Assembly: GCA_044361155.1 (NCBI GenBank)
Contig: JBIKJF010000011.1
Span: 69-64,068 of the forward strand
Direction of reading: 5' to 3'
Source: Flavobacterium sp.
Lineage (GTDB): Bacteria > Bacteroidota > Bacteroidia > Flavobacteriales > Flavobacteriaceae
Length of the DNA: 64,000 nucleotides
This document shows positions 37,234-64,000 of the stretch, one piece after another (position 1 is the stretch's first letter; every line of letters begins with the position of its first letter). Under the pieces are notes generated by a model that saw nothing but the letters and a program-made list of their open reading frames with translations, was not told the DNA's origin and did not search any database. A program made the translations under genes and the position numbers.

Positions 37234-40200
37234 TTACTTAATTAAAACAAATGTTTGATTTTCATTTACAATAGTTCCATAGAATGTTTCTGCTGTTACT
37301 TTACTGTAATAGTTTCCGTTTTCAGCATTCAAACCTTTTATTTTGCCATCCCATCCTATAATTACATCTCCCTTCTCAGCATAAATAAGGGAGCCCCAAG
37401 TATCATAAATTTCCAATTGAACCTCTTTCAATCTTTTAGTTACTGGTCGGTAAGTATCATTTAAAGTATCGTTATTTGGAGTAAATGCCGTGGGTACTAC
37501 TAATAAATATCCCTTTTCAACTAGTAGAGTGATGGTTTGCACATATACACAACCAAAAGGATAAGTAACGGTTTGTGTTACTACATAATCTCTTGGGATG
37601 AGATAAGTGTGCACAGGGTTTAACTCAGTTGAAAATGTTCCATCTCCAAAATCCCAAGAAACTGATAAATAATCCCCTGTAATGGTACTATTGAATTGAA
37701 TTGGATCTCCGATGGAATAAATACCGTAGGTAGTATATCCGAAAGAGGTTGCTTCAAAAGAAGTATTACCAATTACAGGGTTGTCTACATCTACAGTATA
37801 ACTAGCTGAACAACCAGCACCATCTGTAACTGTTAGAATTACTGTCCCATTTGTTGTTGAATTCATTATTTGATTGTTCACACCACTTATATTTCCACTT
37901 GACCATTGGTATTGATAAGGGGGAAGGCCACCACTTGCTTGTGCCACAAAATTTTGAGTTACTTCGCGTGTTGTACAATCAAAATCTGTTTGGGTTGTAA
38001 CCGCTATTATCACTGGAGTAGGTCTGACTAAGGAATATTGACCCGAAATGACGCAGTTGTTAGCATCGGTTACTGTTACTAAATAATTTCCTGCATTCAA
38101 ATTGGTCAGGTCTTCTATTGTTGAACCATTTGACCAACTGTAATTGAATGGAGCAGTGCCACCCGATACAATTAAATTTATTGCTCCGCTATTAGCAATA
38201 GTACAATCTAGTGGATTAGTGATATTTGCTGAAAGTACCAAGGGTTGAGGCTGTATTATATTAAATGTTCTCACAATGAAACAAGGCGTGCCATCTGATA
38301 TTGTAGCTACATATGTTCCTGGAGCCAGATTATTTCTTATTAATCCTGCAGTACTACCATCACTCCATGTCAATGCTACCGGAGCAATTCCTCCTGTTAA
38401 ATTAAGATTAATACTTCCATTATTTGCGCCGAAACAAGTTACGTTTGTTACTATCGGATTTACGGTAAATATTGGTGCTTCTGGAATTATTATATTTTGA
38501 ACTTTACTACATCCTAAATTATCTGTTACAGTTATTACATAGGTTCCGGCAGATAGGTTTGTTTGGTTTAAAGTAGTAGCTAAGTTATTCCATTGGTATT
38601 GATATGGGGCGTTTCCACCCGATATTGTTGCGGTTATTGATGCATTGTTTCCACCAAAACAGGTAATTGGTGTTGTAGTAAAACTAACAATAATTTCAGT
38701 TGATTGTGTAATTATAACTACCAAATTTGCAGAACATCCTTGATTATCAGTAACTGTTAGATTGTAAGTTCCTGCTGCAATTGAATTTAAATTTTGATTA
38801 TTATTAGTAAAACCATTTGGTCCAGTCCAAGCATATGTGTAATCTAATGTAGAAGGGTTTGGTGTTCCTCCAACTACATTTATTGTAATAGCTCCTGTTG
38901 CTGTACCAAAACACAATACATTGGTTTGACTCACTAAACTTACCACCAAAAGCGGTGGCTCTGTTATAGTAAACGTGTCTGTTTTTGGACCGCAATTATT
39001 CACGTCTGTAACTGATACAACATAAGTTCCTGGTGTGAGATTAGAAATATCTTGAGTAGTGGCAAAAGGAACATTATTTTTTGTCCAAGTATAAGAATAG
39101 CTCCCTGTTCCACCGGATACCGAAATCGCAATGCTCCCATTTTCACTACCAAAACAAGTACTATCATCTTCATTATCAACTGTAACTACAATATCAGCAG
39201 GTTCACTAATGGTATAAGAGTTTGAAAATGGACAACCTCCAACATCATCAATACTAACATTATAAACTCCTGGTAATAAATTAGTAATATTCGCCGCGGA
39301 AGAAGTAAATCCATTTGGCCCTGTCCAATTTATTGAATAAGGAGGAATTCCACCAGTGATATTGGTAGTAATAGAAGCTGTATTGATACCAAAACAAGTA
39401 TTGTTATTAGCAACTACATTTGGATTAATAGCAGGATTTACAGTTACAGTAACTGTAAAGTTATCACCAGTACATACACCCGAAATTGGCGTAACTGTGT
39501 AAGTAACTGTTGCAGGACTAGTAGTGGAATTCACTAATGTCTGGCTTATATTGGTCTGGGGAGTGTTTTGAGCTGATGCTCCTGTTATGGAACCTGCGGG
39601 AGATATCGTTGGGTTTGACCAAGTATAGGTTGTGCCCGAAGGTATAGTATTTCCTGAAGCAGTAGTCGGAGTAATGGTAAAAGTAGTACTGCTGCAAATG
39701 GTAGTTATTTCTGGCACTATAACGGGATTTGGATTAATGGTTACCTCAGCAGGATTGGATACAATCAATGAGCAAGAACCTGATATAGCGGGAAAAGTAA
39801 CTTCACAGTAATAAAATGTTGTCCCAGTTGGAGTGGCTGGTGGATTATAAGTAGCATTTGTTGCCCCAGAAATTAAAGTTCCACCAATATTAGCACTAAT
39901 GGTGTTGGAATACCATTGATAATTTGGCGTACCTGCACCATTAGCGACGGTTAATGATAAAGTTGTAGGCGTTGCACCTAAACAAATAATACTAGATTGA
40001 GGTTGATTGACAATAGCAGGAGCCAAATTAACATTAACTGTTGCAATAGCGCTCGTTACATTACAGCCTATTCCTGCCGGTTGGGTTATTAAACAGTAAT
40101 AATACAAAGTGCCTGCAATGGTAGTTGAAGGTGTAAAACTATTGTTAGTTTCCCCGACTAATAAAGTACCCGCAGAAGTGTTATTAACTAATGAACTGAA

Positions 40201-56155: not shown

Positions 56156-56503
56156 ACGTTGGCTGAGGCTCTCGAAACCAATGTGGGGATTAACTACGTT
56201 GTTCCCATATAGGGAATCCTGGGCAAAAGAAAACTTTACTGATTATTGCTATAATCAATAGTTTTTTGTTCATCACGTTGGCTGAGGCTCTCGAAGCCAA
56301 TGTGGGATTAACTACGTTGTTCCCATATAGGGAATCCTGGGCAAAAGAAAACCTAAATGATTATTTGCATAATCATTTGTTTTATACTTCACGTTGGTTG
56401 AAGCTCTCGAAGTCAATGTTGGGATTAACTTCGTTGTTCCCAGATAGGGAATCCTGGGCAAAAGAAAACCTAAATGATTATTTGCATAATCATTTGTTTT
56501 TTT
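56156..56503. repeat. Three tandem ~117-bp structured repeats
   Basis: Units start at 56156, 56275 and 56391; each has TTGG-CTGAGGCTCTCGAAG-CCAA-like, TTCCC-A.ATA-GGGAA and GATTAT-TTGC/TGCT-ATAATC hairpins plus a T-rich tail. Confidence 0.92.
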
Positions 56504-56592: not shown

Positions 56593-56610
56593 TGCGGAGA
56601 AAGAGGGATT
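56593..56610 (-). other. att core: duplicated 3' end of a tRNA-Ser-like gene
   Basis: Minus strand AATCCCTCTTTCTCCGCA equals the T-arm 3' half, acceptor strand and G73 discriminator; the T-loop is broken (GGTT-AATCCC instead of GGTTCGAATCCC) and the rest of the tRNA is absent. Confidence 0.8.
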
Positions 56611-56666
56611 AACCTCGTGCCTTTATATTGCTGATATACAATGTAGTATATTTTGTTTTTAATTCA

Positions 56667-56687
56667 AGTACCCCTAATAGTACCCCT
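56667..56687 (+). promoter_or_regulatory. Direct repeats, candidate integrase arm-type sites
   Basis: AGTACCCCT at 56667-56675 and 56679-56687, about 60 bp inside the att. Confidence 0.45.
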
Positions 56688-56839
56688 CTAAATTATTGTG
56701 GTTTATCATCTATGTTGATACTTCAAATTTACAAAAAATACTTCAATTTAAATTCCGTTTTGTGATTAAAATTTGAATTGGTAGTTATTTATTTTACAGA
56801 CAAGTAAAGTTTGTTTTTTGAACAAGTAAACTTTAAAAA

Positions 56840-57043
56840 CTAACCAATAATAAGACGCTCAACTTGTTCATATTTTAAGCTAGTGTATTGGCAGAACTCC
56901 TCGATGCTCACAAGTTCATTTTGGAGCTTATTGAGGTCCTTTCTGATATTTTGCAACATTCGTATGCTTTGCCTGTAACTCTTCCCTGTAATACGTTGTA
57001 TGTCCTTTGGGTAGATACACAATCTCTTATTTTCAATTTTCAT
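56840..57043 (-). CDS. Small basic HTH protein, excisionase/RDF-like
   Basis: 67 aa, IYPKDIQRITGKSYRQSIRMLQNIRK (MerR/Xis-like HTH); first gene inside the att. Confidence 0.6.
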   Translation of the reverse strand: MKIENKRLCIYPKDIQRITGKSYRQSIRMLQNIRKDLNKLQNELVSIEEFCQYTSLKYEQVERLIIG

Positions 57044-57206
57044 ACACTATCTATAGCTTTAACTAGGCTTTGACTTACATGAAAGCCGTATAATCCAATT
57101 TTTTGAACAGGATAAAATTAGTAAAAAATCTATTTTGTTTAGAAGCTGCAATTTACTTTTAATTTTTAGGTTCAAAAACGTGTATTTATGTCGATTTCTG
57201 CCATTT

Positions 57207-57223
57207 ATGTCACAAAGTGACAT
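57207..57223. promoter_or_regulatory. Operator-like palindrome in divergent intergenic region
   Basis: ATGTCAC-AAA-GTGACAT. Confidence 0.45.
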
Positions 57224-57355
57224 ATTGTATTGGTGCTACTTTTTTAATCGGTTTAATTGACTAAAATTTGTTTTTGAAATCAATCGATGGATGTTGCAAC
57301 AGAATGATGATTGAGGGAAATGATCACTGATTTTAATAATTAAAATTTTGAAGTT

Positions 57356-58114
57356 ATGGCTAGACAGAAAGGCATAATTAAACTAAAAGGTACTATCGGA
57401 GATATTACTTTTTACAAAACGCAAGATGGACACTTAGCAAGAGAAAAAGGCGGAATTGACGCTAGTAGAATTGCCAGTGACCCTGCGTTTCAAAGAACGC
57501 GTGAAAATGGTTCGGAGTTTGGCAGAGCTGGCAAAGCCGGAAAGGTTTTGAGAACGGCATTAAGAGCATTGCTTTTAAATTCTGCTGATGGTAGAATGGT
57601 TAGTCGTTTGACGCAAGCGATGGTAAAGGTTATTCAAGCGGATTTGGTGAGCGACAGAGGCTTGCGTAACGTGATTGATGGTGAAGCGGAATTGCTTACG
57701 GGATTCGAGTTTAACATTCGTGGTAAATTAGGAACTAGTTTATTCGCTCCTTTTGTTGCAACAATTGACCGTGTTGCTGGAGAAATAAGTGTTGATTTGG
57801 CTTCGTTTATTCCAGTTAATATGATTGCAGCTCCATCAGGAACTACTCATTTTAAAATTATTTCTGCTGGTGCTGAAATTGATTTTGAAGCTGAAACGTT
57901 TGTCGAAACGCATTCAGAAACTGCCATTTTACCATGGGATGCCACTGCAACTGCTGTGATAAGCCAAGTAAATGCAGTTACGCCTGCGAGTACAAAACCA
58001 TTGTTTTTGGCATTAGGTGTTGAATTTTATCAGCAAGTAAATGGAACTATGTACCCGCTTAAAAATGGTGCTTTCAACCCGTTATCGGTTGTGAAAGTAG
58101 ATAGCGGTGTGTAA
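57356..58114 (+). CDS. Hypothetical 252-aa protein (basic N-terminal arm, beta-rich C-terminal half); possible virion structural protein
   Basis: MARQKGIIKLKGTIGDITFYK...; no signal peptide; TAATG-coupled to DUF5675. Confidence 0.8.
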   Translation: MARQKGIIKLKGTIGDITFYKTQDGHLAREKGGIDASRIASDPAFQRTRENGSEFGRAGKAGKVLRTALRALLLNSADGRMVSRLTQAMVKVIQADLVSDRGLRNVIDGEAELLTGFEFNIRGKLGTSLFAPFVATIDRVAGEISVDLASFIPVNMIAAPSGTTHFKIISAGAEIDFEAETFVETHSETAILPWDATATAVISQVNAVTPASTKPLFLALGVEFYQQVNGTMYPLKNGAFNPLSVVKVDSGV

Positions 58115-58509
58115 TGGTTCTTGAATTGACCAGAACTTATTTCCCTAACGGAACTAACGGAAAACTCGAATGTAAAGGAAAATCGATTTGTAATACAATT
58201 GAGTTACCATGGAGAGAAAATGAAACGAGAGTTTCCTGCATTCCGGAAGGGAAATATTTTATTAAAAAACGATACAGCCAAAAATTTCAATGGCATTTGG
58301 AGGTTTTGGATGTGAAAAACAGAAGTCTAATTCTGTTTCATCCAGCCAATAATGCTTTGCAAGAATTGAACGGTTGTATTGCTCCAGTAACTAAACTTTC
58401 TGGACCAGGATTAGGGTTGATGTCCCGAAAAGCTTTTATAAGTTTAAAATCGATGGTTTATAAAGCTTTGGACAAAAAAGAAAGTGTTGAATTGATTGTG
58501 AAATCTTAA
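58114..58509 (+). CDS. DUF5675 family protein (L,D-transpeptidase-like His/Cys peptidoglycan enzyme, putative endolysin)
   Basis: TNGKL...CNTIELPW...SCIPEGKY, ILFHPANN...GCI; no signal peptide. Confidence 0.8.
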   Translation: MVLELTRTYFPNGTNGKLECKGKSICNTIELPWRENETRVSCIPEGKYFIKKRYSQKFQWHLEVLDVKNRSLILFHPANNALQELNGCIAPVTKLSGPGLGLMSRKAFISLKSMVYKALDKKESVELIVKS

Positions 58510-58521
58510 ATAGTTATTTTT

Positions 58522-58773
58522 ATGAATATACTAGAAAGAGCGAAAGCTCCAACTCCGAAATTTTTTAAGATTTTGAGAAGTATTGGATTGGCATTATTGG
58601 GTATTAGTGGTTCAATAGTAGCTGCTCCAGTTGTTTTACCTGCAGCAGTAGTTACTGCAGCAGGTTATGTAGCTGTTGCAGGTGGTGTAATTTCTGCAAT
58701 TAGCCAAATAACTGTTGATGATAAAGCCAAGAAAGAAATTGAGAACCTCAGCAAAGCGCGTGATGGAAACTAA
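58522..58773 (+). CDS. Small membrane protein, holin-like
   Basis: 83 aa, long Ala/Val/Gly hydrophobic stretch (about 2 TM), basic N-terminus, charged C-terminus. Confidence 0.6.
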   Translation: MNILERAKAPTPKFFKILRSIGLALLGISGSIVAAPVVLPAAVVTAAGYVAVAGGVISAISQITVDDKAKKEIENLSKARDGN

Positions 58774-58939
58774 TATTTCTTTAAAAGCTGGCACTGCATC
58801 AGGAACAGTATTGAGTATTTTACCCAATATTCTTTCTGAAGATATTGTAAAAACAATTATCTTAGCAGCGTTGGGAGCAACTGTTAGTTTTACGGTTTCG
58901 CTCTCATTAAAATGGTTGACAAAATCTAAAAATAAATAG
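58763..58939 (+). CDS. Small membrane protein, holin/antiholin-like (58 aa, ATG 58763)
   Basis: METNISLKAGTASGTVLSIL...IILAALGATVSFTVSLSLKWLTKSKNK; hydrophobic segments and basic tail. Confidence 0.55.
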   Translation: METNISLKAGTASGTVLSILPNILSEDIVKTIILAALGATVSFTVSLSLKWLTKSKNK

Positions 58940-58979
58940 TCCAGTTTTCGTGTGGTAACCTTTACTGGATTAACTTAAG

Positions 58980-59007
58980 AAGCCTAGTCGTTAGACCAGG
59001 CTTTTTT
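58980..59007 (+). terminator. Intrinsic terminator ending the four-gene operon
   Basis: AAGCCTAGTC-GTTA-GACCAGGCTT-TTTT; preceded by a second hairpin TAGTCCAGT...ACTGGATTA (58937-58972). Confidence 0.75.
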
Positions 59008-59429
59008 CATTTATTACAATAGCGGTATAAAATTACTCTTCGCATATCGTTTATGAGATTGATATTCTCATGAAACTGCTTTTCCTTTTGTTCTAGAAGC
59101 TTTAGTGCTGCAATATGCTTAACATGTTGCTCGTGCTCTTCCATCATGATTTTTGCTTTTGGAAAAAACTCTTTTTTGAAGTCTGGAAGACGTAAGAATG
59201 GAATTACGGAACCACAAAGAAATTGGTGCCAGAATTTTGTTTTCCATAAACTATAAGCAATGAAAAATAAACTTTCGCATTCATCCTCGTTTTGAAAAAT
59301 GATAACAAAACTGTTCGTAAATGGCTCTTTTTGTGGCTTTCCGCTGTTCATCCCTTTGTTAAGTACAAATAAATGAGGTCTTGAGTAAATCGTGTCTTTT
59401 CGGTGGGTTTTGATGATAAAATTCGGCAT
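59007..59429 (-). CDS. DUF6943-like protein
   Basis: FVLNKGMNSGKP...PFTNSF, LCGSVIPFLRL, C-terminal amphipathic helix. Confidence 0.7.
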   Translation of the reverse strand: MPNFIIKTHRKDTIYSRPHLFVLNKGMNSGKPQKEPFTNSFVIIFQNEDECESLFFIAYSLWKTKFWHQFLCGSVIPFLRLPDFKKEFFPKAKIMMEEHEQHVKHIAALKLLEQKEKQFHENINLINDMRRVILYRYCNK

Positions 59430-59569
59430 AACATTCGGCTTTAAAAATTGATTATATTTTCAATTTTCTGCGGATTTTCTCTTGAAATGCAGGTGTCTCT
59501 CGCTACGCTCGACCTATAAATTTTTCAAAAGAAAAAAAAGAAAAAAAGAAAGCCATTCGTTCAAGTGGA

Positions 59570-60689
59570 AGGTTTCAAAAAAGCAAGTTTTTTTGAAAAA
59601 ATACTACCCGAATGGGTGGAGATTTTTTCAAAAACCCGTAGGGCTTGAACTTGCTTTTTTGTAAACCTGGAACTTATCTTTGCTCTCTTTTTTTTTATTT
59701 TTTATTTTGATTTCATTTACTAAACATCATCGTATAATCTGAATTTGTTTGAAGGATTGGGTGTTGATGTGGAAGATGGTCGTCTTTGGAAGTGTATCAA
59801 TTTTTTGTAGATGGATGACTGAGTGTGATGAAAAAGAAAATGTGCTTTATCCATCTGAAAAATTGATACTCTTCCTTCTACAATTTGATTTTTGAGGATG
59901 CTTAAATAGTGTTCAGTTTTCAGGATTTAGTAATCAATCGGAATGTTGTTATGGAAATGGGAAGCATCTTCAAAAAACAATGCAAATACTTACCAAGTGC
60001 GTTGGCAGAAGCTCAGAGCAAGGGTATCATTTTTTTATTTGCTTATTGGGAGTTTCTGATTGCTTTTATTAATAGCTGATGCCACAAATAGTGTTCAGTT
60101 TACAGTTTTTAGTCTTCAGCATAAACTTGTTTAGTAACGTTATGGCATCAGCTATTGTGAAAGCAATTACCTCTGTGCGTTGTGGCAAATGAAAAATGAT
60201 ACTCTTGCTGGCTCTTTTGGTTTTGTGGGTGCCTGATTGATGTTCTGACGGAAGAAGTTATTGCCCAGAAAAAAGTTGTTATGAAAATGAAAAGGCACTT
60301 ACAAAAGCAATGAAAACACTACCGATTTAACAAGTTAGTTGCTAAAAACAGTTACCGTAAACGTTCTTGAAAGTAAGTATGACCGTAAAGTTTCCTATGA
60401 AATAGCGAACGTTGTTGAAGACAGTGGCGAAGGGTGGTTTTTTGAGTAGCCGGCTGGTGCGATGGAAGCTGCTCAAAAAGTTGCCCTAGAGCCACTGGCA
60501 AGCGCGTTGGGTGTGGCGGCTTTTTTACATAATGTTATTATAGTGCATCCTAATATTTCATTAGTAGCAGGGTGTTTCTTTATGCACTATAATGCCACAT
60601 TATGTAAAGAAGCTTGGGGAAAAAAATTACTGGCATGAGTCGCTTTGCGAACATGTTTTTGTTCCAAAAACCATGACAGTAATTTTTTT
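59570..60689 (+). other. Non-coding array of at least seven long imperfect hairpins (structured ncRNA or ssDNA element)
   Basis: Stems 59570-59668, 59788-59875, 59889-59976, 60017-60209 (nested 60059-60167), 60422-60497, 60519-60613, 60620-60689; no credible ORF. Confidence 0.8.
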
Positions 60690-60742
60690 GGAGCGTTGGC
60701 AAAGGAGTGGCATTTGAAAACTTAAAACGTAATTAAAAAAGA

Positions 60743-62341
60743 TTATTTTCTATGCCTTTTATTTATAAGTTTTTGTCTAATATTTTCTATTTTATCAATC
60801 TCCTCAACTGTTAAACCAAGTGTTCCGTTAAGTATTTGATAGTTATATTTATTTAGAATATCTTTTATAGAAGTCTTATTTTTAAATTCTGAGATATATT
60901 CTTCAAAGTTATTGCAATTGGTATAAGGAATTGGTAGTACTCTCAATTCATTTGGTGTCAATTCTAAAACTCCACCTCCATAATATCTTCCTTCTAATTC
61001 TGCAAAAGCTAATGTTAGTGAATTATAAAAAGAAAAAATAAAATTATTTAATTCAAAGCCTTCTTTAATTTCAATTTTGTATGCGCTGTCAGTAACAAGA
61101 ACATCTGCATCATTTCTTAAAAGTTTAGGATATTCATGTGCTCTCTTAAAAAAGAAAGCTTCAGGAATTGTAGCTATGTTTGGCACCTTGTACCATCTTT
61201 CCCTTTGTTTGCATTTGAACCTTGAAGGTAATTCCAATTGATTACCAATATTAAAATATTCGTTCATTTCAGGAGTAATTTCATTATCAATTAAAGAATT
61301 GAAATCAAGCAAATATGTTGGTTTACGCTCTTCAACTAATGTATCAAAATCTTTTTTATTGAATGTAACCGAACCGTTTACGAAGAATCCTTTTTGAACA
61401 ATTGGTTTAGCAAAATTTTGAAAATTATATGCTTGAACAACATCATTATTTACTATGAAATAATTGTTGGCAGCAGTAACTATTCCCGCTTTATTATTAA
61501 TGAAATGTGTAACATTTTGTATGCGCAGTTTTAAGTTTTCTAGAAACTCATATTCTTCGGGTGTTATAAAATGATGTGACCACTTCCTGTCTGAATTAGC
61601 AAGTGCGGTATTTTCATAAAACTCATAATTATCATTTTCTAAATCGTCTAATGCATTAATATTAGTATAGAATGTTCCTTGATTTTCATGTGCTTTATAT
61701 CCAATTAATAAAACCGTATCTTGTCCTTTACATTCCTGGAATTGAAGTTCATTAAAAGTAAAAATTTCTATTCTTTGAAATTCATTTATTAATAACGATC
61801 TTATTTCTTCAGTAAATTTGACTTGCAATAATTCTAATGGTAATATCATCGCCAAAATACCATTATCTTGTAGTTTAGTAATTCCGCTTATTAAAAAAGA
61901 TGTCCAAATATTATTAATACTTCTATCTGATAAATATTTTTCAGAATGAATCCTTTTTGCTAACTCTTTCTGCTCCTCTGACAAATGATTTTTTTTAACA
62001 TAAGGAGGATTTCCGATAATAAGTGAGTAGCGATTTTGGTCGTTGAAATGGAAATTTAAGTAATCTAAATTATTTGGAATTAAATTAATTTTTTGATTTA
62101 TTTCAAGATCAATTACTTTTTGTAATTCGTCATTTTCTTTTTCTACAACTGTATTGTTAATCGTTTCAAATCTTTCAAGTTCTTGACTTTTTGATATTGC
62201 ATTGATAAAAGCACCATCCCCAACACTTGGTTCAAGTATAGATATAGTTTGTTGATTGTCTATCTTGGATAAACAATAATCTGCCACAAAATCTGCTAAT
62301 CTTGTAGGTGTATAATAAGAACCTAACTTTTTTTTATTCAT
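60743..62341 (-). CDS. Gamma-class N6-adenine DNA methyltransferase (Eco57I/TaqI-like)
   Basis: LGSYYTP, motif I ILEPSVGDGAF, motif IV IIGNPPYV, C-terminal AELEGRYYGGGVLELTPNE. Confidence 0.92.
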   Translation of the reverse strand: MNKKKLGSYYTPTRLADFVADYCLSKIDNQQTISILEPSVGDGAFINAISKSQELERFETINNTVVEKENDELQKVIDLEINQKINLIPNNLDYLNFHFNDQNRYSLIIGNPPYVKKNHLSEEQKELAKRIHSEKYLSDRSINNIWTSFLISGITKLQDNGILAMILPLELLQVKFTEEIRSLLINEFQRIEIFTFNELQFQECKGQDTVLLIGYKAHENQGTFYTNINALDDLENDNYEFYENTALANSDRKWSHHFITPEEYEFLENLKLRIQNVTHFINNKAGIVTAANNYFIVNNDVVQAYNFQNFAKPIVQKGFFVNGSVTFNKKDFDTLVEERKPTYLLDFNSLIDNEITPEMNEYFNIGNQLELPSRFKCKQRERWYKVPNIATIPEAFFFKRAHEYPKLLRNDADVLVTDSAYKIEIKEGFELNNFIFSFYNSLTLAFAELEGRYYGGGVLELTPNELRVLPIPYTNCNNFEEYISEFKNKTSIKDILNKYNYQILNGTLGLTVEEIDKIENIRQKLINKRHRK

Positions 62342-62967
62342 TATCTTCTAATTTCTTTCAACTTATAAGGTCTTATTTTTTTTCTTTTTTCGGTTATATC
62401 ACTTAACTTTGAGAAAGCATCAATTAGATTTAATATAGATTGCTTATCTGCTAAAATTAAATCCAGTTTACCTAATTTTTCAAGGTCTTTTCTAACCGCT
62501 AAAGCTCTTTCATTTAATAATTGTTCCCTTCTTTCATATATAAGTTGTGCTCTATTTAAAAATAATCGTTGAGTAATATAACTGCTACTTATATAATTAC
62601 CTGCAAGTTTGTATGTTTTTGTATCTAGCGTAAATAATGTTGAATAGTCATATATTGATGGATCTGGATAGCAACATATATTTAAACTATATGCATCATT
62701 TGGCCAATCATCACTTTTAAATCTATTGCAAATAGGACATGCATAGAATAAATTTAAAATATTATTTTCTAAATGCTGAAATCGCGCAAACGACTTTGGT
62801 TTATAATGTTCAATATGGTAGTGGTCAATACCACCAAATTGTGTTTCATTTATCGAACAATAAACGCATTGATAAAAACATTCCTCTGCAATCTGCTCTT
62901 TCCAGTCAGAATAAATACCAGTTGTAGGTTGTTTGGCAGGATTTTTAATTATTAATTTCCAATTCAA
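62341..62967 (-). CDS. Zn-finger HNH endonuclease
   Basis: QCVYC, HIEHYKPKS, NLFYACPICNRFKS. Confidence 0.9.
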   Translation of the reverse strand: MNWKLIIKNPAKQPTTGIYSDWKEQIAEECFYQCVYCSINETQFGGIDHYHIEHYKPKSFARFQHLENNILNLFYACPICNRFKSDDWPNDAYSLNICCYPDPSIYDYSTLFTLDTKTYKLAGNYISSSYITQRLFLNRAQLIYERREQLLNERALAVRKDLEKLGKLDLILADKQSILNLIDAFSKLSDITEKRKKIRPYKLKEIRR

Positions 62968-63680
62968 TTTTGATTCAATTTTGATTGTAATTCAGTTTTA
63001 AGTTTTTCTAATTCCAATATTGTATTTTCATATTGGTCTAGCCATTCTTGCCTATCATTAAGTGTAGTGTCTAGCGGTAAATGCAATTTAGTTTGTAATG
63101 CTAACAAGCTATCATATTCATCTTGACTGTATTCACCAGACGCTACTTTTTCAGATAGTTTTTGAAACTCTTGTAATTCAATTTTATTCTCATCCAAATA
63201 CCTCTGTGTAGCTCTAATGATTCTATTAACATATTTATCTCCTTCATTTATGAATTCTTGTCTTTCTATTATATCTTCAAATTCACTGAATTTTGCAGTC
63301 AATTCATCGTCACCTTTATTAGATGTTATTACATAAATTGGAATGTCTTTAAAACGTTCACGAATTACTGAAACCAATTGGTCTCCTCTATAATTAACGG
63401 GTCCAATTCCCTTTTCAGTTTCATTATTCATCCTCTCGTCAAAAATCAAACATACAATGTTTTCATCTTTTATCCATTGGAAATATTCCTGAAATGTTTC
63501 AGTAACAAATGGGAAAATATCAATTATTTCAAAAGTTGAATCATTATTTTCTAAATAAGCTCCAAGAGAAAGTCTTAAGGTTTCTCTTTGGTCAAAATTA
63601 TCATCAATAATTCCAATTTTGTATATTTTGACAGTTTCTAGATTTTCAGTACCCTCGTTTTTAATATCAATTTTACTCAT
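62964..63680 (-). CDS. Response-regulator receiver protein with helical tail (no HTH)
   Basis: IGIIDD (D26-D27), LIFDERM (D81), IYVITS (T119/S120); R140 at the usual Lys position. Confidence 0.75.
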   Translation of the reverse strand: MSKIDIKNEGTENLETVKIYKIGIIDDNFDQRETLRLSLGAYLENNDSTFEIIDIFPFVTETFQEYFQWIKDENIVCLIFDERMNNETEKGIGPVNYRGDQLVSVIRERFKDIPIYVITSNKGDDELTAKFSEFEDIIERQEFINEGDKYVNRIIRATQRYLDENKIELQEFQKLSEKVASGEYSQDEYDSLLALQTKLHLPLDTTLNDRQEWLDQYENTILELEKLKTELQSKLNQN

Positions 63681-63683
63681 AAT

Positions 63684-64000
63684 TTATTTCTTTTCTAGTG
63701 GTAACCAAACTTTAAATCGTGCTCCTTTTAAAGTAGGATCAATATCAAAAGACACTTTTCCCTTTAAATCCCTTACAATTGAACTAACAACAGTCAACCC
63801 TAGTCCAGTTCCAATACTATTACTACCTTGTGTAGGATTTATTTTTGTAGAAAACAAAGGTTCAAAAACACGATGACTAAATTCCTTTGATACACCTGGA
63901 CCAGAATCTGATACAATTATTGAATACCCTTGTAATTCTGTTTTTTTATTGATTTTAGCATCTTCTCTTGTGAGCGAAACAATAATTTTTCTTTCGCCTC
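63684..64000 (-). CDS. Histidine kinase / HATPase_c, C-terminal part (runs off window end)
   Basis: Manual translation ...IIVSDSGPGVSKEFSHRVFEPLFSTK...GTGLGLTVVSSIVRDLKGKV...GARFKVWLPLEKK*, giving the G1, F and G2 boxes. Confidence 0.9.
   Translation of the reverse strand, partial: GERKIIVSLTREDAKINKKTELQGYSIIVSDSGPGVSKEFSHRVFEPLFSTKINPTQGSNSIGTGLGLTVVSSIVRDLKGKVSFDIDPTLKGARFKVWLPLEKK

Follow-up and report, generated by a model that had tools for sequence, protein, structure and literature searches.

Tycheposons of Prochlorococcus use a tyrosine recombinase, target transfer RNA (tRNA) and transfer-messenger RNA (tmRNA) genes, and stand in tandem arrays that build genomic islands; they carry replication-type genes and variable cargo and are without conjugation genes. 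Within the Flavobacteriales, the 10K island of Riemerella anatipestifer (PMC6764341) lies at a tRNA gene, encodes a tyrosine integrase and mostly hypothetical proteins, and excises into a circle; tycheposons are cited in PMC11876622. Here, we describe an island of about 33.1 kb in Flavobacterium sp., whose left end lies in a stretch of 64,000 nucleotides (hereafter the window; positions 69-64068 of contig C5, one contig of a 62-contig genome that is 99.99% complete). The window contains the integrase-distal arm and the first cargo genes of what is probably an integrative, self-replicating, plasmid-like island with a cargo hotspot. This reading is built on the observed boundaries, a backbone in two arms, the turnover of cargo, copies standing in tandem, and a relative that occurs as a circular replicon. 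The family to which the island belongs is very widespread in Bacteroidota and apparently undescribed: no description of it was found in the literature on DUF6943, DUF5675, RteC in Flavobacterium, Bacteroidota satellites, and tycheposons.

Coordinates beyond 64000 are given as window-equivalent, that is, in the same numbering extended rightward on contig C5. The island runs from a 3′ fragment of tRNA-Ser(TGA) at 56594 to a second copy of a 17-mer beyond the window. The 17-mer, GCGGAGAAAGAGGGATT (56594-56610), reads as the T-arm and acceptor 3′ end of tRNA-Ser(TGA) in reverse complement. It recurs without mismatch 33,122 bp further right, at window-equivalent 89716 and just past the integrase gene, and a third genomic occurrence lies inside the intact tRNA-Ser(TGA) on contig C40. 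A tRNA gene adjoining the attachment site (att) was searched for within the window and was not found, the true gene being that on contig C40. Next to the left att site are paired AGTACCCCT repeats, and GTACCCCGAATAGTACACC, a near-copy of this repeat, lies beside the integrase gene at the opposite end of the island. An earlier reading made from the letters of the DNA alone (the sequence-only reading) had taken 56593-64000 for the whole element; the arm for integration, regulation, and replication lies 25-30 kb further right, outside the window, as a conserved block in which all genes are on the - strand. On the host side of the att site, three tandem copies of a 116-119-bp unit (56156-56503) were observed just past the native tRNA terminator. 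This repeat unit is outside the island and occurs at a single place in this genome.

Related loci were collected from species-representative genomes using the 252-amino-acid (aa) protein of the left arm as a query, which gave at least 532 loci, 80 of which were kept and inspected. The six features that the sequence-only reading had set in order (att, small gene, operon, DUF6943 gene, hairpins, and cargo) were all present in that order in the open reading frame (ORF) listing and family scans. The features of the near arm, with the evidence in brackets, are as follows.

56594-56610, no strand: distal att core of 17 bp, left island boundary (exact repeat at 89716; inside tRNA-Ser on C40)
56667-56687, no strand: paired AGTACCCCT repeats, candidate integrase arm-type sites
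56840-57043, - strand: small HTH-like gene for a 67-aa basic protein, divergent from the 252-aa gene (conserved in 78/80 loci)
57356-58939, + strand: operon of the 252-aa, DUF5675, and two small membrane protein genes (ORF listing, family scans)
57356-58114, + strand: 252-aa protein, the most conserved gene of the family (83-98% identical over 80 loci)
58114-58509, + strand: DUF5675 protein, probable cell-wall cysteine peptidase, YkuD/C82-like (Pfam, E value 7.6e-32; PHROG 1501)
58522-58773, + strand: 83-aa membrane protein, holin-like (ORF, hydrophobic segments; syntenic in related loci)
58715-58939, + strand: 74-aa membrane protein, holin- or spanin-like, overlapping the 83-aa gene (ORF; syntenic)
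About 58975-59006, no strand: two-way terminator downstream of the 74-aa gene
59007-59429, - strand: DUF6943 protein (Pfam, E value 9e-57)
59505-60735, + strand: array of conserved long hairpins, ~1.2 kb (collinear homology in 64/80 loci)

The far arm comprises the following genes, all on the - strand.

Far arm, - strand: 217-aa protein of the conserved block
Far arm, - strand: 202-aa DnaC-like helicase loader (PHROG 50, E value 1.1e-13)
Far arm, - strand: 279-aa initiator-like protein, winged-helix at the N-terminus and DUF4373-like at the C-terminus (each domain found in phages)
Far arm, - strand: HTH_17 protein (family scan)
Far arm, - strand: RteC (family scan)
Window-equivalent 88222-89466, - strand: 414-aa tyrosine integrase of the Bacteroidota type, with Arm-DNA-bind_5 and SAM_5 domains (family scan)

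Past the 17-mer at 89716, a new 67-aa gene starts, whose protein is 70% identical to that of the window, and contig C5 ends inside this gene. The gene follows directly on the second 17-mer and belongs to a second element, in tandem with the first. A third integrase-RteC-HTH-initiator-loader set is found on contig C52, whose end falls within a hairpin array (37411-37654) with 88% identity to 60491-60734. Breaks in the assembly seem to fall at element copies, in the hairpins on C52 and in the 67-aa gene on C5, so that the genome holds at least three. On contig C41, a 55.4-kb paralogue is bounded by ssrA on one side and by a 24/26 repeat of the 3′ end of ssrA on the other; it has the same two arms, and its 252-aa protein is 91% identical. 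In a closed genome of the same genus (G123), tRNA-Ser(TGA) is followed by two complete elements of 31.9 and 34.6 kb in tandem, each running from the integrase to the 67-aa gene and bounded by AATCCCTCTTTCTCCGC, the same core as in the window. In 40 of the 80 related loci, the tRNA-Ser fragment is found ~720 bp to the left of the 252-aa gene, and in ~15 loci the integrase of a neighbouring element lies immediately left of this fragment, indicating that tandem arrays are common. The tRNA-Ser, ssrA, and G123 copies are tRNA/tmRNA genomic islands in the Islander sense.

In almost all of the 80 loci, the order is the 67-aa gene (- strand), the 252-aa gene, DUF5675, the two membrane proteins, and DUF6943 (- strand); the hairpins come next in the syntenic arm. 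The core order, which had been predicted to be conserved, was thus syntenic in the loci retrieved with the 252-aa bait, and non-synteny was not seen. The left ~4 kb had been proposed to be the conserved core of a Flavobacterium family; the core itself was borne out, with 56594-60735 syntenic in the 80 loci, but the family reaches well beyond this genus. Among 401 Bacteroidota genomes sampled, 30 carried it, in 20 of 178 genera and often in 2-4 copies per genome, and relatives of the 252-aa protein with 38-46% identity occur on Cytophagales plasmids. On Fulvitalea plasmids, the 252-aa and 67-aa genes lie beside a replication initiator and ParAB.

The circular 'plasmid p1' of Marivirga sp. BKB1-2 (25,320 bp) has every part of the backbone, arranged as would be expected of an island closed into a circle. 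The two membrane protein genes, DUF5675, and the 252-aa gene are on one strand, and the 67-aa gene, integrase, HTH_17, initiator, and loader are on the other strand. From the 67-aa gene to the integrase, p1 has arm repeats, the core, a terminator hairpin, and arm repeats, and the GTGTCCA pairs that flank its core are analogous to the AGTACCCCT pairs of the window. From their placement, the AGTACCCCT pairs are candidate arm-type sites of the integrase. Since joining both ends of the window island would give this layout, p1 represents a circularised relative, and a circular form, which the sequence-only reading had proposed to look for, exists for this relative as a deposited 25-kb replicon.

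Homology of the related loci stops at 60703-60735, no more than 40 bp from the first cargo gene. The cargo genes within the window are as follows.

60743-62341, - strand: Eco57I-type adenine methyltransferase, first cargo gene (Pfam and PADLOC MTase_II, E value 1.2e-131)
62341-62967, - strand: HNH nuclease, PtuB-like (family and defence scans)
62964-63680, - strand: receiver-like protein (weak Response_reg match)
63684-64000, - strand: C-terminal part of a 780-aa protein with two GHKL ATPase domains, running on to window-equivalent 66026

The Eco57I-type methyltransferase was missing from all 80 related loci. On the cargo side of these loci, the proteins formed 328 clusters, 269 of which were singletons; only backbone clusters were common, and the most widely shared cargo cluster was present in 7 loci. 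The right-hand cargo thus varies as predicted, and invariance was not seen. The anti-phage and related cargo includes restriction-modification systems of types I, II, and IIG, HerA systems, an SLFN-type protein, mads, Olokun, AbiE, TOTE, and PRTase-CE, and the resistance-type cargo includes resistance-nodulation-division efflux, P-type ATPase, copper oxidase, and ACR3-like genes; toxin-antitoxin cassettes are also found in the hotspot. Elements with little cargo are only ~11-14 kb long (loci L013, L025, and L039), and the overall size range is 11 to 55 kb. A second variable site lies between the membrane protein genes and DUF6943, with offsets of 1.2 to 6.6 kb, and a third lies between the integrase and RteC.

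To the right of the window, the cargo of the island continues with AbiEii/AbiEi, an M48-TPR protein, a 1,234-aa CHAT-TPR protein, and several unknown ORFs. At window-equivalent 68081-75914, three unknown ORFs are followed by the M48 peptidase-TPR gene and then the 1,234-aa TPR-CHAT (caspase-like) gene, and this stretch is possibly a further defence module. A penicillin-binding transpeptidase with a PASTA domain, unusual for Bacteroidota, is encoded at window-equivalent 82121-84130. The sister island at ssrA (C41, 80001-136200) carries a lanthipeptide set (LanB/LanC-type proteins, a C39 ABC exporter, and HlyD) as well as Gabija-like and SIR2/HerA-type genes, erythromycin esterase, and MazF.

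The hairpin array had been suggested to mark where interchangeable cassettes are inserted. The boundary between conserved and variable sequence does fall at the 3′ end of the array (60703-60735), but the array is part of the backbone: it bounds the cargo as a single block at one side and is not a per-cassette site. The island also differs from an integron-like platform, as its integrase is not of the integron type and its hairpins form one block beside the cargo instead of one per cassette. Cargo would be swapped when copies in tandem, or residing in one genome, recombine homologously through their conserved arms. The left arm itself is a mosaic, with DUF5675 in two identity classes (~80% and ~55%) and the two membrane proteins in complementary classes whose combinations with the DUF5675 types vary by locus, which points to recombination within the arm. 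Because tandem and multi-copy arrangements would favour it and the left arm is mosaic, arm-to-arm recombination is the simpler account of cargo exchange.

The region at 59430-60742 (~1.3 kb) contains no conserved ORFs, and the block at 59430-60735 is collinear and 66-80% identical in 64 loci. The hairpin stems, all on the + strand, are located approximately as follows.

59571-59667, + strand: hairpin stem
59788-59875, + strand: hairpin stem
59887-59978, + strand: hairpin stem
60023-60204, + strand: hairpin stem (inner part 60057-60169)
60228-60299, + strand: hairpin stem
60422-60497, + strand: hairpin stem
60527-60605, + strand: hairpin stem
60620-60689, + strand: hairpin stem

The folding z score of the region was -8.07 relative to shuffled sequence. 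In six blocks, each aligned over 23-24 homologues, 14-71 consensus pairs were found per block, 82%-97% of the cells paired, and compensatory changes were present at 13-26 pairs per block. For the hairpin at 60422-60497 (34 sequences), 96.5% of the cells paired, compared with 43-54% when the partners were slid; double changes were found in 18 of 27 pairs, and 0 of 500 shuffles reached the observed score. Across the array, G-U cells numbered 661 and A-C cells 60, and three adjacent G-U pairs were conserved in one hairpin stem. The + strand fold was more stable than the - strand fold in 24 of 24 homologues, by ~88 kcal/mol on average. The covariation, the G-U excess, and the strand bias in stability suggest that the array is a conserved backbone element acting as a single strand of + polarity. 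This strand is most likely a structured RNA and less likely a single-stranded DNA, since the tandem G-U pairs and the theta-type replication genes favour RNA. No match to Rfam 15 was found at E ≤ 1 inside 59430-60742.

The neighbours of the 252-aa gene are less conserved than the gene itself, with identities of 45-87% compared with 83-98%. The 252-aa protein forms more than 6,600 clusters at 90% identity, and its gene lies in a local G+C peak (0.42 versus ~0.31). Its AlphaFold model, with a predicted local distance difference test score (pLDDT) of 85, shows an N-terminus that is basic and disordered, a helical domain and, at the C-terminus, a beta-sandwich. The protein matched nothing in Pfam, PHROG, or NCBIfam, searches of IMG/VR and of 50,697 phage records (INPHARED) turned up no relative, and its fold had no match in PDB or BFVD at E < 1e-3, the best template modelling (TM) score being ≤0.28. 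A capsid reading was rejected after the structure prediction, the PDB and BFVD fold searches, and the empty IMG/VR and INPHARED searches, and the label 'structural', which had been given to the operon, was dropped. The name 'Phage major capsid protein' in two UniRef entries is not backed by Pfam, PHROGs, or NCBIfam. Neither the 252-aa protein nor the hairpin array has a known counterpart. Divergent paralogues of the 252-aa protein (28-36% identity) are encoded beside some elements, at 6424-7777 in L015, 7817-8620 in L074, 6274-7032 in L045, and 6872-7717 in L086. One of them directly adjoins a DUF6943 gene without lysis genes, and these paralogues may represent a second, smaller element type.

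The 67-aa protein had no match in Pfam, PHROG, or NCBIfam, and an identical protein is encoded on 212 contigs. The 67-aa gene is paired with the 252-aa gene on Fulvitalea plasmids without an integrase nearby and also in distant genomes. The persistence of the pair in distant members argues that the small gene, called 'Xis-like' in the sequence-only reading, partners or regulates the 252-aa gene rather than encoding a dedicated excisionase. The DUF5675 protein has the His...Gly-Cys signature of YkuD/C82-type peptidases and is without a signal peptide. DUF5675 is found in 83 phage records, including Cellulophaga, Salinibacter, Vibrio, and other phages, and is treated as a C82-like lysin in a 2026 preprint (bioRxiv 10.64898/2026.04.11.717860). 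Because DUF5675 is followed by two overlapping genes for small membrane proteins, a putative lysis-type cassette is a fair reading of the three genes, and it suggests release by lysis.

The DUF6943 gene was present in 64 of the 80 loci at a variable distance from the operon. The model of its product (pLDDT 80) shows a small alpha/beta domain and one helix of ~58 residues. No significant match to PDB was found by sequence, with nothing below E 0.2, or by fold. The gene had been called a half-HsdS gene, a label that found no significant sequence or fold match to HsdS: the HsdS-containing entries retrieved by Foldseek had E values of only 0.83 to 8 and TM scores of ≤0.21.

Taken as a probably self-replicating, plasmid-like island, the element would excise via its own integrase and then, as a plasmid-like circle, use its own initiator and loader to replicate. 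Its hairpin array would work as a backbone part in the form of a single + strand, and the lysis-type cassette would allow release by lysis, with or without a helper phage. Several points weigh against this account. The architecture is read directly from the DNA, whereas the life cycle of this copy, namely its excision and replication, is deduced from it. The initiator and loader functions are predicted from weak-to-moderate profile matches (E values of 1e-13 and 7e-16, the latter to families of unknown function). The Marivirga circle is a 46%-identity relative from another order in which many genes are fragmented. A relaxase too divergent for Pfam may be present among the unannotated ORFs. As for the array, RNA and single-stranded DNA would look alike at the sequence level, and a scan for Bacteroidota-type promoters gave one + strand candidate, at 59675 and with imperfect spacing, and none on the - strand.

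The alternative that holds up best, although we consider it unlikely, is that the element is a phage satellite, as the sequence-only reading had proposed. In this case, a helper phage would induce the island, which would replicate and be packaged in capsids made by the helper, and the 252-aa protein and lysis cassette would hijack the helper or time lysis. The integrase, the AlpA-like HTH_17 protein, and the phage-type replication genes resemble those of phage-inducible chromosomal islands (PICI) and P4-like satellites, DUF5675 occurs in phages, the cargo hotspot is rich in defence genes, and the island carries neither conjugation genes nor virion genes of its own. By homology, the loader and initiator also give it its own replication module, as satellites have. 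However, no small terminase and no capsid-size or scaffold factor was recognised by Pfam, PHROG, or NCBIfam in either arm, nor was any other packaging gene; the 252-aa model matches no capsid or scaffold fold; and the family is not found in IMG/VR or the phage records. Moreover, sizes of 11 to 55 kb misfit a single capsid, relatives exist as ParAB plasmids, no helper was found, and the genome has no large terminase of two main families (PF03237 and PF03354). The satellite label is kept as a possibility and not as a description.

In a somewhat more doubtful proposal, to which we give a low probability, the island would spread with neither conjugation nor a helper capsid. The ultra-conserved 252-aa protein would assemble with the 1.2-kb hairpin array, as + strand RNA or single-stranded DNA, into a particle or ribonucleoprotein of its own, which would be freed by the peptidase-holin cassette.

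It is improbable that a conjugative element of the donor mobilises the island and moves it as single-stranded DNA, with the + strand hairpins as single-strand promoters or priming sites of a leading region that switch on DUF6943 and the - strand cargo upon entry. RteC and an integrase of this type are common to CTnDOT/NBU-type elements of Bacteroidota, the hairpins are strand-specific, and DUF6943 and most of the cargo lie on the strand expressed from the + strand template. Against these points, family scans of the 33-kb and 55-kb copies gave no relaxase or conjugation gene. The replication genes, an initiator and a loader, are of the theta type, and RNA is favoured by the run of three conserved tandem G-U pairs within one stem. 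TraG, the conjugation ATPase of Bacteroidota (TIGR03783), was searched for in this genome and was absent; it was present in only 5 of 20 element-carrying genomes, being missing from the other 15, and was commoner in genomes without the element (15 of 19; Fisher p = 0.0012). Within the genus, TraG was found in 2 of 7 carriers and 9 of 9 non-carriers. The deficit in carriers could reflect ecology, genome size, or exclusion of conjugative elements by the defence cargo.

A decayed prophage remnant with no mobility of its own, to which the lysis-type cassette, the integrase at a tRNA gene, and the phage-type replication genes might point, is hardly credible, given that the frames of the gene set are intact across hundreds of genomes, which often hold 2-4 copies, also in tandem, that an identical 67-aa protein occurs on so many contigs, that a circular relative is known, and that neither virion genes nor any trace of them, as a prophage would have, were recognised in the element.

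In this plasmid-like island family, anti-phage and resistance genes appear to have a major carrier without a name, in Flavobacteriia and also outside them. The fixed arms provide a handle for new defence systems, because every gene flanked by the hairpin array and the loader gene becomes a candidate. The family raises the question of how an island moves without conjugation or virion genes yet with its own lysis-type cassette, and that of the roles of the 252-aa protein, which has no known fold relative, and of the 1.2-kb covarying hairpin array. If the 252-aa protein and the hairpins did form a particle, it would be a new kind of transfer agent; at minimum, the array would define a new class of large, structured nucleic acids that go with mobile defence islands.

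Compared with known systems, the family shares with PICI, including those of the Staphylococcus pathogenicity island (SaPI) type, and with P4-like satellites a tyrosine integrase at a fixed site, an AlpA/HTH_17-type regulator, its own initiator, the lack of virion genes, and a variable site rich in anti-phage systems. Unlike them, it has no recognised packaging or capsid-redirecting gene and no known helper, it spans a five-fold size range, and it has its own peptidase-plus-holin-like cassette and ParAB plasmid relatives. With CTnDOT and NBU of Bacteroides, it shares an integrase with Arm-DNA-bind_5 and SAM_5 domains and RteC beside an HTH_17 excision-type protein, but there are no tra or mob genes in the island and no conjugation ATPase in the host genome. 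Several long strand-specific hairpins in one non-coding region are also seen in the intergenic region of filamentous phages and in the single-strand origins or promoters of plasmids. The array described here differs from these in its length of 1.2 kb, in having no rolling-circle or morphogenesis genes with it, and in its tandem conserved G-U pairs, which suggest RNA. The Riemerella 10K island, compared by description and not by gene content, differs in targeting tRNA-Arg with a 53-bp att. Tycheposons belong to another phylum and have another backbone gene set, and to our knowledge no counterpart of the 252-aa operon or the hairpin array has been reported for them. Set side by side by description, the two are alike in recombinase type, tRNA/tmRNA targets, tandem arrays, replication-type genes, variable cargo, and the lack of conjugation genes. 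With no packaging gene to place it among satellites and no transfer gene to place it among conjugative or mobilisable elements, the family fits the tRNA/tmRNA islands.

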